From a virus (lineage: Duplodnaviria; Heunggongvirae; Uroviricota; Caudoviricetes): a stretch of 43,084 nt of DNA. The notes beneath the pieces are model-generated. The model worked only from the letters and a program-made list of their open reading frames with translations. It was not told where the DNA came from and searched no databases. The stretch spans positions 1 to 43,084 of IMG/VR virus record IMGVR_UViG_2778261355_000014; one strand, 5' to 3'. The position numbers and the translations under genes are program-made. This document shows, one piece after another, positions 9,835 to 14,791 of the stretch (position 1 is its first letter; every line of letters starts with the position of its first letter).

Positions 9835-9989
9835 ACCGTTATCCCCTCTCTCTTCAGGCTGTCCAACACTCGCTTGTAAATCTCAGAGTTAACAGATCGC
9901 CCGTTCTCTTCAGCTACCTTGCGCACCAAATCCAATACTTCTTTAGGCCACCGCAAATTGAACTGAGGCATTTTTCTTGCACCTTGCAT
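9831..9989 (-). CDS. arc: Arc repressor (ribbon-helix-helix)
   Basis: Hand translation MQGARKMPQFNLRWPKEVLDLVRKVAEENGRSVNSEIYKRVLDSLKREGITV; close to P22 Arc as recalled; under 60 aa so absent from the ORF track. Confidence 0.8.
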   Translation of the reverse strand: MQGARKMPQFNLRWPKEVLDLVRKVAEENGRSVNSEIYKRVLDSLKREGITV

Positions 9990-10012
9990 ATTCAACTCCA
10001 TTTCACTCATTG

Positions 10013-10050
10013 ATAGTACCGTACTACTATTGAAAGTGTACTACTACCGT
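10013..10050. promoter_or_regulatory. immI operator region (Arc/Mnt-type inverted repeats) between divergent arc and mnt
   Basis: ATAGTA-ccgtac-TACTAT inverted repeat and adjacent TACTACTACCGT copy in the 93-bp divergent promoter region. Confidence 0.5.
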
Positions 10051-10082
10051 TCTAGCATGTCAACAAATAAAAGGAGAACGAC

Positions 10083-10325
10083 GTGGCTAGAAATGATCCA
10101 CAATTCAACGTAAGAATGCCTGATGAGATAAAACAGCAACTTACGCATATTGCTGCAACAAATCGCCGCTCGATAAACGCAGAGATTATTTCAGCTATCG
10201 AACTATGGATAAAAATTCATAAAGGGCAGCTAATACCTTCAAGTAGTCGAATCCTGACAAAGTCTGAGCAAGAGGCGTTTGATGTAGCTATTGATGTGTT
10301 AAAACGTGTAAGAGATGGAGGATAA
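10083..10325 (+). CDS. mnt: Mnt-like repressor (ribbon-helix-helix)
   Basis: 80-aa ORF; N-terminal MARNDPQFNVRMPDEIKQQLTHIAATNRRSINAEI resembles P22 Mnt/Arc N-termini; divergent from arc. Confidence 0.7.
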   Translation: MARNDPQFNVRMPDEIKQQLTHIAATNRRSINAEIISAIELWIKIHKGQLIPSSSRILTKSEQEAFDVAIDVLKRVRDGG

Positions 10326-10327
10326 CC

Positions 10328-10561
10328 ATGGAGCAACAACAAGGGTCGCCATTATCATTGATTATTATGGTGATTTTTTTCGTTTTTATCTTTTTTATAC
10401 CTGCGTTAAAAATATCCAAAAAGGCCGGTTTTGACTGGAAGATGGCTGTATGTTTAACAATCCCTGGCTTTAACGTGGTGGCGTGGCTCGCGCTTGCGTT
10501 CATGGATTGGCCAATTCACAAGTATCTACCAAAAGATGTGAATCGTAAGGATGCAAAATGA
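10328..10561 (+). CDS. Small membrane protein (two predicted TM helices), apparently co-transcribed with mnt
   Basis: GGAGGA RBS inside mnt 3' end; hydrophobic stretches LSLIIMVIFFVFIFFIPAL and AVCLTIPGFNVVAWLALAF. Confidence 0.5.
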   Translation: MEQQQGSPLSLIIMVIFFVFIFFIPALKISKKAGFDWKMAVCLTIPGFNVVAWLALAFMDWPIHKYLPKDVNRKDAK

Positions 10562-10767
10562 ATAAAAAACAGCTTATTAAGTCAAAAACGTCAAGCAAGG
10601 AAGAATTAGAGAAGGAGCTAAACTCCCTGAAATATGCTCTGTGTCTGGTTTACTCAAGACTGCCAATGGAAGATAAAAACGCCATTTACAATGAAATGAT
10701 TAGCAGCCTTGATTTTAACGATAGAGACCTAGCATCCCACCTCAACAGCTTCCGCGTCCCTGAGTAA
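10558..10767 (+). CDS. Hypothetical 69-aa protein
   Basis: ATGA start/stop overlap with the upstream ORF; hydrophilic. Confidence 0.4.
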   Translation: MNKKQLIKSKTSSKEELEKELNSLKYALCLVYSRLPMEDKNAIYNEMISSLDFNDRDLASHLNSFRVPE

Positions 10768-10927
10768 TTCTGTTGCGGATTTGCTTCTTGCGGTGGTTTA
10801 AGCTGGAGAGCTTGGCTTCTGCTTCTGATATTTGCGCATCTAGATCTTTAAGCTCAAGATCTGAAAGTCGCTGGTCAAGCAAGGTTTGGTTCAACTCAAT
10901 GTTGTTCAGGCGTTCTTCTATGGTCAT
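10742..10927 (-). CDS. Hypothetical small coiled-coil protein (start taken at MTIEERL)
   Basis: Heptad-like LNNIELNQTLLDQRLSDLELKDLDAQISEAEAKLSSL; convergent with and overlapping the 10558-10767 ORF 3' end. Confidence 0.35.
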   Translation of the reverse strand: MTIEERLNNIELNQTLLDQRLSDLELKDLDAQISEAEAKLSSLNHRKKQIRNRITQGRGSC

Positions 10928-11068
10928 GATTTCTCCTTGTTGAGGTTGATGTGAAACGATTGATTGTATACGCACTCTTTTGTTAGCTAGTAGCTTTGCT
11001 TAATCGCAAGATAAAGTTTCTGATTAATCCCTAAAAATCAAAAAATAAAGTTAAAACAGGTACATGAT

Positions 11069-11272
11069 ATGGAATGGATCATAGGATTTGTTGTTCTTAT
11101 CTTCATAGCCAGTATGTTTAAACCAAGAAGTTGCGATATCTGTGGTGCTGGATTTAAGAAAAAGTACTTCACATGGACTATCGATGGAAAGAAACAGCAT
11201 CTTTGTCCGTACTGCAACAGTAAAATGGAGAGACGCAACAGCGATAGGCGCTTTAAGGATCGATTTGGTTAA
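11069..11272 (+). CDS. Small membrane-anchored zinc-ribbon protein
   Basis: N-terminal TM helix WIIGFVVLIFIASMF then CDICG...CPYC motif. Confidence 0.45.
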   Translation: MEWIIGFVVLIFIASMFKPRSCDICGAGFKKKYFTWTIDGKKQHLCPYCNSKMERRNSDRRFKDRFG

Positions 11273-11288
11273 CCATTTTATCTCCAAC

Positions 11289-11314
11289 AAAAAACCCACC
11301 TGACGGTGGGTTTC
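11289..11314. terminator. Bidirectional rho-independent terminator
   Basis: aaaaaaccc-acctgacggt-gggtttc hairpin flanked by A-run and T-rich tract between convergent ORFs. Confidence 0.7.
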
Positions 11315-11318
11315 ATAA

Positions 11319-12287
11319 TTAGATTTCTGGTTTCATTCTTCCGAAAACCTTTTCTATTCCTTTTTCGTATTCTTCTCTTGTCTCACTCATCGCTGCGACA
11401 CCAAGAAGCTTACCGATATGCTGACGCAAAGCCTTGACACCAATTTCAGAAAGGAACAGATGCAACTTATCAGATTGTTTTCCGTTCTCGTCTCGGCTGG
11501 CTCGAATCTGTTCAAGGATTTTACCTTTACTCTTTGCTAGCGGGGTGTATATCTGCATGTTGGTTAGCTGCCCAAAACGAATAGGCCGTCCTTTCTCTGG
11601 CCTATTCAGGCCGTACAGTCGATACCACTCCTCGTATAGCTCATCTGGAAATTCCTTTTCATATTGACGAGCCTCTTCACGAACAAACGCTTTGAACTCG
11701 TCAATGACAGCCTGAACTTCTGGACGATAACCAGCAAGCGCATACGCAACCCCCTTAATTCCCGCCTTAGCGGAGGCATTAATAAGTCTCTGTGCTGCGG
11801 CGGCTGCCTTTAACCGTGATTGTGGTAGATCGTCATTATCTTTGGCTTCTATTAGTGCCCTACCAATATCAACAATTGCTGTAATGTCATAACCTAACGC
11901 TTGATGAACGGTTTTAGACTTCGAAGTAAGTTGAAATTTATAGGGATTTTCCATTTTTCGCTGCAATTCTAGATCTCGGTATTTGCTCATATACTGAGCG
12001 CCAAGCAGTTGATCTAAATCCCTGGCATGTTCACCAATCCCTAGCAACTGAGATAATCCAGTTTTCGTAACAACGACAGTTTTCGACTCGTCATCCAGTA
12101 CATAACATTCAGCATCAATGCCAAAATCATCTAAAAAGTTACCACGATGAGTTGCCCTGAGAATCTTACTTTTCCATCTTGCAGCAGCTGCTTTCTTTGC
12201 TATTTCAGAACGCTGCTCTTTAGTCAGCGACTTTGCGCGAGCGATCCCGCCCTTAGCTTTCCCTTCGCCACTTTTCTTTTCAGTCAT
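11319..12287 (-). CDS. Hypothetical 322-aa phage protein with basic N-terminus, at the sieA-equivalent position
   Basis: Start taken at MTEKKSGEGKAKGGIARAKSLTKEQRSEIAKKAAAARW; no catalytic motif recognised; family (possibly P63C-like) not verifiable here. Confidence 0.5.
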   Translation of the reverse strand: MTEKKSGEGKAKGGIARAKSLTKEQRSEIAKKAAAARWKSKILRATHRGNFLDDFGIDAECYVLDDESKTVVVTKTGLSQLLGIGEHARDLDQLLGAQYMSKYRDLELQRKMENPYKFQLTSKSKTVHQALGYDITAIVDIGRALIEAKDNDDLPQSRLKAAAAAQRLINASAKAGIKGVAYALAGYRPEVQAVIDEFKAFVREEARQYEKEFPDELYEEWYRLYGLNRPEKGRPIRFGQLTNMQIYTPLAKSKGKILEQIRASRDENGKQSDKLHLFLSEIGVKALRQHIGKLLGVAAMSETREEYEKGIEKVFGRMKPEI

Positions 12288-12443
12288 AATGCAAGCACCT
12301 TTGTTGTGATGTATGCTTGCATTATATGCACTGTACACACATACAAGCAAGCATAAAACTAAAACAAAATGCTTGCATTACAACCGCGCTACTCCAACTA
12401 CACATTATCATCTGGTATCCTGCTCAAAACTAAGGAGGTTGGT

Positions 12444-12671
12444 GTGAAGCGATGGTTCCTCATAATTACTGTTTTCGCGATCATTTATACTATTTTCCCT
12501 GCATTAAAAGCACCAATGCAAATAATTTCGCTAGCAATAATTGCGATTGGTGCTTTCATTGCAGTAGCCGTACTTGTGTTTAAGGTTTTAAAGTTTTTAG
12601 TTTGGCTATCAAAAGATGATGGATGCAAAGTTCATCAAGAAAAAGAAGGCAAAATAACCAAAGTTGACTAA
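12444..12671 (+). CDS. Small membrane protein (two TM helices), divergent from the 322-aa gene
   Basis: GTG start 7 nt after AAGGAGG RBS; WFLIITVFAIIYTIF and IISLAIIAIGAFIAVAVLVF hydrophobic segments. Confidence 0.5.
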   Translation: MKRWFLIITVFAIIYTIFPALKAPMQIISLAIIAIGAFIAVAVLVFKVLKFLVWLSKDDGCKVHQEKEGKITKVD

Positions 12672-14791
12672 CTGTCACTAGCGAGCCATGTAATAATCCC
12701 CGTGCGGGCAATGGTTTTTGCTTCATCTGTTGATAAGGTTTTCTCCCATCTCTTAAATGCCCCAGATTGCATCAGTTTCCTTTCTATTACGCGTCTCACT
12801 TCTGCTCTGTCTACTGGTGCGTTTTGCAGGCGAAATAGCATTGATTTAAACTCAGGAGAAGACAGTAGAGCATCAGCAGCCTTTATCCTGCTTGTTTTCC
12901 CTGACATCAATGCTGACGTTATCACCCCTGTTGCACCTACACCAGGAAGACCAGATAAGCTTGTAATACCTTCCGCCGCAGCAGCTTTTGAGGCTATTCC
13001 ATAAATTTTTGCGAGACTACCCTTTTCTTTCAGAAAGTTATTAACTTGCTGATCCACAAGACTACTAGCATACTGCTTACCAGTATTGAGTCTATTCATA
13101 GCCTTAGCTGCTTGATAAATCGTATCAAGGCGCTTTGATGCATCTGTGCCAATAGCATCACGGAGAGCCTTCATATTGGCCCCATTGCGTGACATTCCGT
13201 TATACCATTTTACAAATCCATCAACTCCTAATTGCTGACCAGGTGATTTGGCATAGCTGGTAAATGCTTTATTCATTGAGGTGAGAGCAACTTCCTGCCG
13301 CATATCCTTTGGAATCGACTTCATTAATTGCCTAAAGTCGCCACCGTTTCCTTTTGCCATATTAACAACAGCACTTTCAACTTTTGGAATTGCTGATTGC
13401 TGAAGTTTTCTACCCAAGACGGTTACAGCATCATCTTCAATGGATTTTCGTTTTTTTACCAACTCCTTACCAAGCGTCCATAATTCACCTGCGCCATATT
13501 TTTCTGCGACAGCCTGTTGGTCATCTGTTATGGCTGCATATAACTTTTTAAGAACACCTGTTTCTTCATCCTTGAATGGACCAGAGCCTTTGCCAATAGC
13601 TTGTCCAACCTGCTTTCTAGCGAGATCTAAACGCCCATACGTTGGCAAGGTGTTTGGATCAAGTCGGTTCAATGTCCGCTTCATTATTGGAGATAATTCA
13701 TCAATTCCACCTATGTCATCAGCAAAATCCTCTAAAAAATTCAATGTATTAGTTGCCTCAATCCGGTCTCTTACAGGAACCTTTTCGGCAATTTTGTTGT
13801 AGATGTTATCTGACTGATTTTGTAATGATGAAATGGTTTTATCAAAATTATCTGCAAGCCTGTCAGAAACCAGTTGCTTATCAAGGCTTCCCCCAAATGA
13901 AGTTATCATTTCATCAGCTTTTCTTCCTAATTCAGTAATAAAACGCTTATGCGCCTCACTAATCTCCGTTCCAGGAAGACTTGCCACTGCATTATCAAGA
14001 GCCCTGACAGCAGGATTATTAGAGATCATGCCTGGAGTGGCATAATTTTCCAGTTCTAGCTCACGAATAGCATTTATCGCGTTAAAATCAGGATTAACTT
14101 CATCGGCGAAATCTTGAATAGCACGTTGCCCACCAATAAATTTATTATCCATTGCGCCAGCAGCTTTCTTTAACGTTGCTTTAGATGATTTACTACCCAT
14201 CCCTACGGATGAACGATAAATATCCCCGGCACTATTTTTAATTTTTCCTGCAATCTTCCCAAGCGCTGGACCAACAATCTCGGCTACAGGGCCAGCCACA
14301 GCACCAATAGCAGCTCCGGAAGCAACATCGCTATTTGTTCCATTGGCTACAATAGCCCCTTCTCCAGCACCAAGCCCTGCGGCGGCAGCCAGCCTTGCCG
14401 CCCCTTTCGGAACCTGAGAAATAATCCCACCACCACTAACAAATGGCGCTGCTTGTCCAACAAACTCACCAACATCTTGTGCGGTTGATGGTTTTGCCGC
14501 TAACTTCTGCTGTAGAGACTGAATTGCGGCTTGCTCTTCTGGTGTCATATCCTGAAACAGGCCAACACCTTTACCAACATCCATCAATCCACTGAGAACG
14601 CCATACATAAAACGGTCGAAACCGTTAGCATTATTAACAACATTTTCCTGTCTGGAATTTTCCTCTGGTGAAACCAAAGGAGATTGCTGCTGTTCTGGTT
14701 GGGAATCAAGCACAAAGCCATCAGGAAGTTGTGAGTTATCAGGCTGTTCATCCAGAACAAAACCCTCTGGTAAACCTACATTGGTTGCCAT
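12668..14791 (-). CDS. Ejection (internal virion) protein, P22 gp16-like
   Basis: 707-aa Gly/Ala-rich protein at the gp16 position of the conserved P22 order. Confidence 0.75.

Follow-up and report, generated by a model that had tools for sequence, protein, structure and literature searches.

Analysis of the 43,084-nt viral record IMGVR_UViG_2778261355_000014 (hereafter, the window) showed that positions 10326-11314, which hold a cluster of four small open reading frames (ORF1 to ORF4) downstream of the maintenance repressor gene mnt, are the accessory part of the ant moron, or immI region, at the place where phage P22 has orf59a and sieA. By its surrounding genes, the window is a P22-like (Lederbergvirus) prophage. 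The name "ant moron" was given to the region bounded by genes 16 and 9, which has no role in morphogenesis, occurs as ten types among sixteen otherwise syntenic genomes, and is traversed by late transcription before the tailspike gene is reached (Villafane et al., 2008; PMC2629481). Here, the segment lies in that interval, between the homologues of gene 16 and of the tailspike gene (gene 9) and beside ant, arc, and mnt. Its content is variable as well, with at least 17 architectures among 37 viral contigs bearing ORF2, and with a ClpP-like gene, a gene for a secreted 105-amino-acid (aa) protein, SieA, P63C, or TM100 as alternative cargo in relatives. The cluster adds a new variant, in content, to a well-described, hypervariable region and is, as such, a useful lead rather than a surprise to the specialist. 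What appears to be new, within the literature searched, is that ORF4 is a real gene yet one missed by RefSeq in E. coli, that it belongs to a large, uncharacterised family, and that in phages it is typically paired with mnt.

The first-pass annotation of the window, made from the letters alone, had described this cluster of small ORFs, and a check of the sequence found every element it listed in place. It had also held that absence of the ORFs from related prophages would speak against the idea; all four proved to be conserved there. In our coding test, substitutions at codon positions 1:2:3 were counted against homologues of 60-85% identity and gave 12:1:37 for ORF1 (vs. Pectobacterium), 12:9:29 for ORF2 and 15:9:26 for ORF3 (both vs. 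Serratia), and 12:5:43 for ORF4 (vs. Yersinia). Since diverged homologues differ mainly at third codon positions, ORF1-ORF4 are real genes, and the substitution patterns show that all four are protein-coding and conserved. The remark that none of them is recognisable from sequence also held, as Pfam (E ≤ 10), NCBIfam, and PADLOC gave no family assignment for ORF1-ORF4, and PDB sequence and fold searches were likewise empty. With PADLOC-DB 2.0, the yield was coiled-coil noise for ORF3 (PbeC, E = 7e-4; JetC) and nothing for ORF1, ORF2, or ORF4. PHROGs places ORF1-ORF3 in families of "unknown function" and gives ORF4 no more than a weak match, RefSeq annotates ORF1-ORF3 as hypothetical proteins, and we found no experimental work on any of the four in the literature. 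The gene that follows mnt in P22, orf59a, is unrelated to ORF1-ORF4 by sequence.

The whole segment occurs at 100% identity in the chromosome of enterotoxigenic E. coli ATCC 43886 and in two further E. coli genomes, and partial copies are present in 139 of 5426 complete E. coli genomes. When the end points of megablast matches to phages and prophages were used to set limits, the Emek match spanned 9800-10938 and that of Kapi1 10545-10937, and E. coli genomes matched either 10545-11314 or 10326-10938. The resulting mosaic junctions, at 10326, 10545, 10938, and 11314, fall at Shine-Dalgarno sequences and delimit three independently exchangeable cassettes between mnt and the P63C and ejection genes, i.e., an ORF1 cassette (10326-10544), an ORF2-ORF3 cassette (10545-10938) with its junctions to other prophages, and an ORF4 cassette (10939-11314). 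Among the 37 ORF2-bearing contigs, ORF3 is present in all 37, ORF1 in eight, and ORF4 in nine; beyond ORF3, these contigs carry ORF4, the secreted 105-aa protein, a ClpP-like protein, SieA, or nothing. In relatives, the slot right after mnt may hold a ClpP-like gene or the secreted protein, joined to mnt by a stop-start overlap; coupling to mnt is shared by ORF2 alone, the 178-aa ClpP-like gene, and the 105-aa protein. The ClpP-family protease-like cargo (178 aa) was found coupled to mnt at 2060-2596 of locus L014 and at 4269-4805 of the Pectobacterium locus L058, where it matches Pfam CLP_protease, and the mnt-coupled 105-aa signal-peptide protein lies at 2347-2664 of locus L021.

The first gene of the segment, ORF1 (10328-10561, plus strand; 77 aa; phrog_32536, WP_000437781.1), begins 2 nt past the mnt stop, and a GGAGG at 10317-10321, inside the end of mnt, precedes its ATG by 6 nt. 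These signals indicate that ORF1 is translationally coupled to mnt. ORF2 follows with an ATGA overlap, and the earlier claim that two ORFs are coupled to mnt in this manner is borne out. ORF1 had also been described as a small two-helix membrane protein, which agrees with its two hydrophobic segments, at approximately residues 9-27 and 39-58 (maximum Kyte-Doolittle 17-residue mean, 3.2). The two predicted transmembrane (TM) helices are joined by a basic loop, KISKKAGFDWK, and the loop and second helix are nearly invariant. ORF1 is probably an inner-membrane protein with both ends outside and the basic loop inside. Homologues of 64-97% identity were obtained from E. coli, Salmonella, Pectobacterium, and Pluralibacter. 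All elements that could be identified from their flanks are P22-like prophages, in which ORF1 occupies the mnt strand between mnt and gene 16 and is either coupled to mnt or placed after the ClpP-like gene. In UniRef, entries with the exact ORF1 sequence are called "Superinfection immunity protein," a label supported neither by Imm_superinfect (PF14373) nor by comparison with T4 Imm: none of 13 ORF1-family members matches the former at E ≤ 10, and hhalign gave a probability of 0.2% for the latter.

The product of ORF2 (10558-10767, plus strand; 69 aa; phrog_16466, WP_016049822.1) is soluble and helical. The gene shares an ATGA with the stop of ORF1, has an AAGGA at 10547-10551, and is translationally coupled in the series mnt-ORF1-ORF2; in Kapi1-type prophages, ORF2 is coupled straight to mnt. 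An AlphaFold2 model from the single sequence consists of three helices (predicted local distance difference test score, pLDDT, 70) and has no Foldseek neighbour in BFVD at E ≤ 0.001. Convergent with ORF2 is ORF3 (10742-10927, minus strand, i.e., that of the late operon; 61 aa; phrog_7586, WP_000151196.1), a coiled-coil-like protein. A GTG at 10975 had been taken as its start; the start is instead the ATG at 10927, with an AAGGAG Shine-Dalgarno sequence 5 nt upstream (10933-10938), and the 61-aa length is kept in all homologues, which are 72-98% identical. The protein is charged, has a basic C-terminus, and contains no hydrophobic segment (maximum hydropathy, -0.19). The 26-nt overlap between ORF2 and ORF3 (10742-10767), already noted in the first-pass annotation, is present as such and is identical in 37 of 37 loci and in Serratia, where the mnt-ORF2/ORF3 layout, overlap included, is kept at ~77% protein identity. 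The ORF2-ORF3 pair was found only beside mnt. ORF3 occurs without an intact ORF2 in loci L014, L021, and L057; in one prophage, it lies between sieA and mnt, next to a truncated ORF2. From this comparison of loci, ORF3 is the constant element, pointing in the direction of the late operon in every case.

The strand of ORF3 bears on a further claim of the first-pass annotation, that these small ORFs are tied to the immunity repressor. Since ORF3 is on the late strand, it is by position no lysogeny gene, and for ORF3 the claim falls. The similarity to Emek breaks off at the Shine-Dalgarno sequence of ORF3, directly upstream of which Emek has a terminator. ORF3 therefore lacks a conserved promoter of its own, and it would most simply be read from late, antiterminated transcripts. 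Some ORF3-like entries at NCBI, which have N-terminal extensions, are named "hemolysin XhlA family protein." ORF3 and XhlA (PF10779) share a short N-terminal coiled-coil-like segment; the match scores 14.1 bits against a gathering threshold of 34.7, ORF3 has no membrane segment, and membership was rejected.

The last gene is ORF4 (11069-11272, plus strand; 67 aa), whose product begins with a TM helix, continues with a Cys4 zinc ribbon, and closes with a basic helix. This is in keeping with the membrane-anchored zinc-ribbon ORF of the first-pass annotation; in the sequence, a hydrophobic N-terminal helix is followed by CxxC...CxxC. The four cysteines are C22, C25, C46, and C49; among 18 sequences of the family C22 is invariant, and the other three are conserved in at least 90%. 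In the AlphaFold2 model (pLDDT 83), the TM helix spans residues 2-16, a beta-hairpin occupies residues 34-45 (strands 34-38 and 41-45) between the CxxC knuckles, and a basic helix runs from residue 47 to 66; the C-terminal part contains 14 lysine or arginine residues. An arrangement of this kind is that of a Cys4 zinc ribbon or treble-clef-like finger, and ORF4 is accordingly a predicted zinc ribbon. Pfam gave no significant match to ORF4, a PDB sequence profile search returned C2H2-knuckle noise only, and Foldseek searches of the model against PDB and BFVD gave nothing at E ≤ 0.001.

Homologues of ORF4 with the same length and 59-100% identity occur in many Enterobacterales, and at E ≤ 0.001 a profile search retrieved 311 representative clusters, including some few false positives among eukaryotic C2H2 zinc fingers. 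Taken together, the searches place ORF4 in a large, widespread, and uncharacterised family. The TM-plus-zinc-ribbon module is also found C-terminal to signal peptides or periplasmic domains (e.g., Sel1 repeats) and N-terminal to cytoplasmic extensions, once a HIRAN domain; examples among the proteins collected here are P0142, P0125, P0104, and P0087. Fusion partners of this kind suggest that the module may have a DNA-related or signalling function at the membrane. Since in relatives the TM helix is preceded by signal peptides or periplasmic domains, the N-terminus should be outside and the zinc ribbon inside, i.e., ORF4 probably resides in the inner membrane with its ribbon and basic helix in the cytoplasm. 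RefSeq, as produced by the Prokaryotic Genome Annotation Pipeline (PGAP), leaves ORF4 unannotated in the E. coli genomes checked, and in some of them an antisense ORF is called instead. Such calls were seen at 11051-11299 (minus strand) and in two further loci (L005, 3226-3534; L007, 2226-2498; WP_158414285.1, WP_063278160.1). Since the antisense frame across ORF4 is broken by 2-4 stops in most of the diverged homologues, these calls are spurious annotation; in practical terms, a real gene of E. coli and Salmonella prophages has been missed and spurious ones called in its place.

In the window, ORF4 stands apart from mnt, and the first-pass annotation had treated it so; in other phages, it is the gene most tightly linked to mnt. 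Linkage was counted in 37 distinct phage-derived loci, with the gap to the mnt-like gene estimated approximately. In 22 of these, an mnt-like gene of the Arc family ends 45 nt or less upstream of ORF4 on the same strand; in two, a gap of ~50 nt holds a hairpin; in ten, the window's group, the mnt-like gene is further upstream with cargo between; and three loci have no mnt-like gene. The mnt stop often abuts the ORF4 ATG, with a good Shine-Dalgarno sequence inside or just after mnt. Modules of ant, arc/mnt, and ORF4 occur in tail gene clusters of myovirus-type phages (Edwardsiella phage Edno5, a Klebsiella KP12 contig, and Yersinia prophages), of one siphovirus-type prophage, and of podovirus-type P22-like phages. 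By these gene orders, ORF4 in phages is typically the gene coupled to mnt on its downstream side. Lone copies exist within tail operons (L008). Outside phages, 26 species-representative genomes carry an ORF4-family gene without an Arc, Mnt, or Ant neighbour, and relatives of 56-71% identity are found at genus-conserved chromosomal loci of Enterobacter, Morganella, and Photorhabdus (L064-L088, GTDB), with no phage genes near. The Enterobacter relative adjoins a sugar:cation symporter-like gene.

A hairpin composed of an A-run, CCCACC, a loop, GGTGGG, and a T-run lies 3' of ORF4 in many phages (11289-11313 in the window). Several mnt-like genes directly before ORF4 end in half a copy of it, AAAAAACCCACCTGA, which encodes KKPT-stop (loci L025, L032, L041, L046, and L047, around position 3000). 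The half copy would be consistent with an ancient insertion into the terminator of mnt or with a boundary of recombination. In the window, the hairpin, AAACCCACC-TGAC-GGTGGGTTT (11292-11313), was assessed by folding energies and z-scores. On the minus strand, it has -20.9 kcal/mol and is followed by U6, making it a strong terminator for the P63C gene; on the plus strand, it has -14.7 kcal/mol and a poor U tail, making it a weaker end signal for the mnt...ORF4 series. Of the bidirectional terminator proposed earlier, then, the hairpin and its strong minus-strand action stand, and its plus-strand half is weaker than supposed.

Upstream of mnt, consensus scans found a Pmnt-like promoter (10030-10058, plus strand; TTGAAA-17-TAGCAT) and a Pant-like promoter (10063-10035, minus strand; TTGACA-17-TACACT), and an inverted-repeat search found an Arc-operator-like repeat at 10007-10033. 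The two promoter-like sites overlap face to face in the layout annotated for Pmnt, Pant, and Oarc of P22, and they presumably function likewise. No intrinsic terminator was predicted between ORF2 and ORF4 or downstream of ORF3, and consensus scans detected no usable sigma-70-like promoter upstream of ORF3 or ORF4. ORF4 in this prophage is without a good Shine-Dalgarno sequence. A moron in the strict sense has an independent promoter and terminator on either side of its gene; a terminator hairpin comes after ORF4 in this prophage and elsewhere among phages, no sigma-70-like promoter was found upstream of ORF4 or ORF3, and ORF1 and ORF2 would use Pmnt through their coupling.

The closest known system is the P22 ant moron itself, with which the segment shares the gene 16-gene 9 interval, the core of ant, arc, sar, and mnt, the presence of unrelated small genes after mnt opposite to the late operon, and a rapid turnover of content. 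In the P22 annotation, mnt is followed by orf59a, a terminator, and then sieA, which has a promoter to itself, and all of these run antisense to the late operon; this prophage differs in having neither orf59a nor sieA and instead ORF1, ORF2, and ORF4 together with ORF3 on the late strand. SieA is a prophage inner-membrane protein of ~160-200 aa with several TM helices and the cytoplasmic motif FxRYPxEAxxFNK; it blocks DNA delivery through the gp16/gp20 conduit, and only a third of P22-like phages have the gene (Leavitt et al., 2024; PMC10883804). ORF1 resembles sieA in its interval, its location on the mnt strand, and its restriction to P22-like prophages; unlike SieA, ORF1 and ORF4 are only 77 and 67 aa long and neither matches its sequence. 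Identity with SieA was rejected for each of the ORFs, which have no match to its Pfam family (PF26849) and are only 61-77 aa in length. A search with phmmer, using the P22 and L057 SieA queries, found type A SieA in none of 16 ORF1 loci, which is weak evidence because only a third of P22-like phages have sieA. The likeness of ORF1 to T4 Imm (~80 aa, two TM helices, a short basic loop) is one of size and architecture only. In morons of the HK97 gp15 type, a late operon reportedly carries one small inserted gene for an inner-membrane exclusion protein. ORF4 homologues in tail clusters recall these morons as lone, opposite-strand, small membrane genes with a terminator hairpin (L008), and differ in that there is no sequence relationship, the ORF4 protein is mostly a cytoplasmic zinc ribbon, and no promoter of its own was found.

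Superinfection-exclusion and lysogenic-conversion functions are usually found among prophage genes expressed with maintenance repressors, and to our knowledge sieA is the only such gene that has been worked out for P22-like phages. We propose that, in the lysogen, the Pmnt transcript would yield Mnt, ORF1, and ORF2 and would probably continue, antisense through ORF3, to ORF4 and end at the 11292-11313 hairpin; read-through to ORF4 is expected because neither terminator nor promoter is detectable before 11292. ORF3 would be translated after induction, from late read-through transcripts heading to the tailspike gene. ORF1 and ORF4 would sit in the inner membrane of the lysogen and may protect it there by interfering with DNA entry of superinfecting phages or by a related form of exclusion, filling the role of the P22 sieA that is missing from this prophage. 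Exclusion is the function we prefer because of position, expression logic, and the precedent of sieA in the same slot. We hold the anatomy and expression logic of the segment to be correct with good confidence; that ORF1 and ORF4 act in exclusion is a tentative suggestion, clearly more apt to be wrong than right. The explanation as a whole, in which accessory cassettes, expression scheme, and membrane protection are combined, stands at about an even chance. Of the earlier description of these genes as superinfection-exclusion or moron candidates, the part that endures is that they are moron-type accessory genes of the ant moron; no homologue of SieA or T4 Imm is among them.

Several observations weigh against this explanation. 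ORF1-ORF4 match no SieA, no T4 Imm, no PADLOC defence model, and no solved fold. The stable chromosomal relatives of ORF4 (Enterobacter, Morganella, and Photorhabdus) show no linkage to phage genes, and ORF4 moves with immI across phages whose injection machines differ; these two facts argue against a lock-and-key exclusion of one phage type and for a general cellular or regulatory role. ORF4 of this prophage has also lost the Shine-Dalgarno sequence that mnt-adjacent homologues possess, and the supposed passage of the Pmnt transcript to ORF4 is deduced solely from the lack of any predicted signal in between. Furthermore, in RNA sequencing of a Kapi1 lysogen, the one published lysogen transcriptome of a related prophage, mnt (Kapi1_063) was below threshold in both lysogeny broth and simulated intestinal fluid, to the surprise of its authors; for the ORF2 and ORF3 homologues (Kapi1_062 and Kapi1_061), no values are given, and they are not among the genes listed as non-expressed (PMC12922286).

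One alternative is that ORF4, perhaps with ORF2 and ORF3, is not a defence gene but a regulatory adjunct of the immI switch, a membrane-tethered zinc-ribbon protein produced together with Mnt and modulating Ant, Arc, Mnt, or read-through to the tailspike gene. Its position immediately after mnt-like genes, often stop to start, in three tail morphotypes, means that ORF4 travels with the module and not with the type of virion, and the confinement of the ORF2-ORF3 pair to the neighbourhood of mnt points the same way. Yet P22 and many other functional immI regions do without ORF4, its chromosomal relatives have no Arc, Mnt, or Ant beside them, some phage copies are alone inside tail operons (L008), and the site after a lysogenic repressor commonly takes unrelated cargo, such as orf59a after P22 mnt; we judge a regulatory role improbable. 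Small enterobacterial membrane proteins are known to modulate, e.g., transporters or sensor kinases, and the membrane proteins of the segment could in the same manner be lysogenic-conversion factors that tune host physiology with no direct part in conflicts between phages. The conserved chromosomal loci of ORF4-family genes within Enterobacter, Morganella, and Photorhabdus favour this idea, as do fusions of the TM-plus-zinc-ribbon module to periplasmic Sel1 or other domains, which resemble signalling proteins; the limitation of ORF1 to P22-like prophages, at a position equivalent to that of sieA, does not, and on the whole we think conversion unlikely.

The coupling of the small, hydrophobic ORF1 to the small, soluble ORF2, as well as the constant company of ORF2 and ORF3 with the same 26-nt overlap in 37 of 37 loci, could also describe a toxin-antitoxin or abortive-infection pair, composed of a small membrane toxin and a coupled or convergent neutraliser. 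The partners are nevertheless separable: ORF1 is found without ORF2 in Pectobacterium, Pluralibacter, and loci L135 and L136, ORF2 is mostly without ORF1, and ORF3 persists without an intact ORF2 in the three loci named above. That ORF2 is always accompanied by ORF3 is accounted for by their physical overlap alone, and PADLOC gave no match. Since co-occurrence is not obligate and the data contradict such a pair, we rejected it as very improbable. The blank left by RefSeq at 11069-11272 (plus strand), the antisense ORFs annotated there in some genomes, and the lack of a clear Shine-Dalgarno sequence might lastly suggest that some of the ORFs arose by chance within an intergenic spacer, above all ORF4, for which PGAP makes no call. 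Against this, full-length ORF4 homologues extend down to 59% identity with their cysteines conserved, comparison with the Yersinia homologue gave 33 synonymous vs. 12 non-synonymous codon changes, the antisense frame is interrupted by stops as described, and ORF1-ORF3 share the same coding signature. The substitution pattern refutes the chance-ORF reading, to which we assign next to no probability.

A bolder reading concerns ORF4 in general. The family may be an unrecognised, conserved part of mobile ant-arc-mnt modules that is made together with Mnt in podovirus-, myovirus-, and siphovirus-type lysogens of Enterobacterales, where it would act either as a new, broad block to incoming phage DNA at the cytoplasmic face of the inner membrane or as a membrane-tethered control on the antirepressor switch, having been recruited from a chromosomal family of small proteins. 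We offer this reading as a speculation with a small chance of being right. The locus presents three compact, well-delimited candidates, ORF1 being specific to P22-like prophages and ORF4 accompanying mnt from one type of phage to another. Should no phenotype be found, the outcome would simply be an improved map of a known, hypervariable moron region.

The remainder of the interval is laid out as follows. The repressor gene mnt (10083-10325, plus strand; GTG start, TAA stop) encodes an 80-aa maintenance repressor of the Arc family (Pfam Arc PF03869, E = 1.8e-12), is the first gene of the plus-strand operon, and corresponds to RefSeq WP_000113456.1, "Arc family DNA-binding protein." On the minus strand are arc (9831-10010), ant (8672-9550), and, by homology, the tailspike gene (6307-8571), which encodes the P22 head-binding N-terminus. 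The sar antisense RNA is encoded on the plus strand at the start of ant (9552-9617; Rfam RF00262, 62 bits vs. a gathering score of 43), and its presence means that the immI region retains antisense control of the P22 type. On the other side of the segment are a P63C-domain gene (11319-12290, minus strand, i.e., the late strand; phrog_2384), a gene for a 100-aa multi-TM protein (12369-12671, plus strand; phrog_7294 over residues 26-100), and the gene 16 homologue (12668-14791, minus strand; by homology). The homologues of the ejection genes 16, 20, and 7 are all on the minus strand, where the late operon runs in the order 7-20-16...arc-ant-tailspike.

Several of these neighbours merit brief description. 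Between arc and ant lies orf73 (9613-9834, minus strand; 73 aa; phrog_11805, WP_001210981.1), which overlaps the arc stop by 4 nt; no gene is found at that place in P22, and orf73 has conserved counterparts in Emek, 611R6, and many E. coli prophages. The P63C gene is variably present, occurring in 611R6 and E. coli A2 and not in some other relatives. The protein encoded at 12369-12671 adjoins gene 16 on the opposite strand, which is the position of sieA in P22; sieA itself is absent from this prophage. It has no SieA Pfam match, and its sole PADLOC match is weak ("4TM effector," E = 0.049). By analogy of position, it may be regarded as a further exclusion candidate, outside 10326-11314. Beyond its head-binding N-terminus, the tailspike has a long C-terminal part that ends very acidic, and RefSeq places a family-2 glycosyltransferase gene beside it (4496-6241, plus strand).

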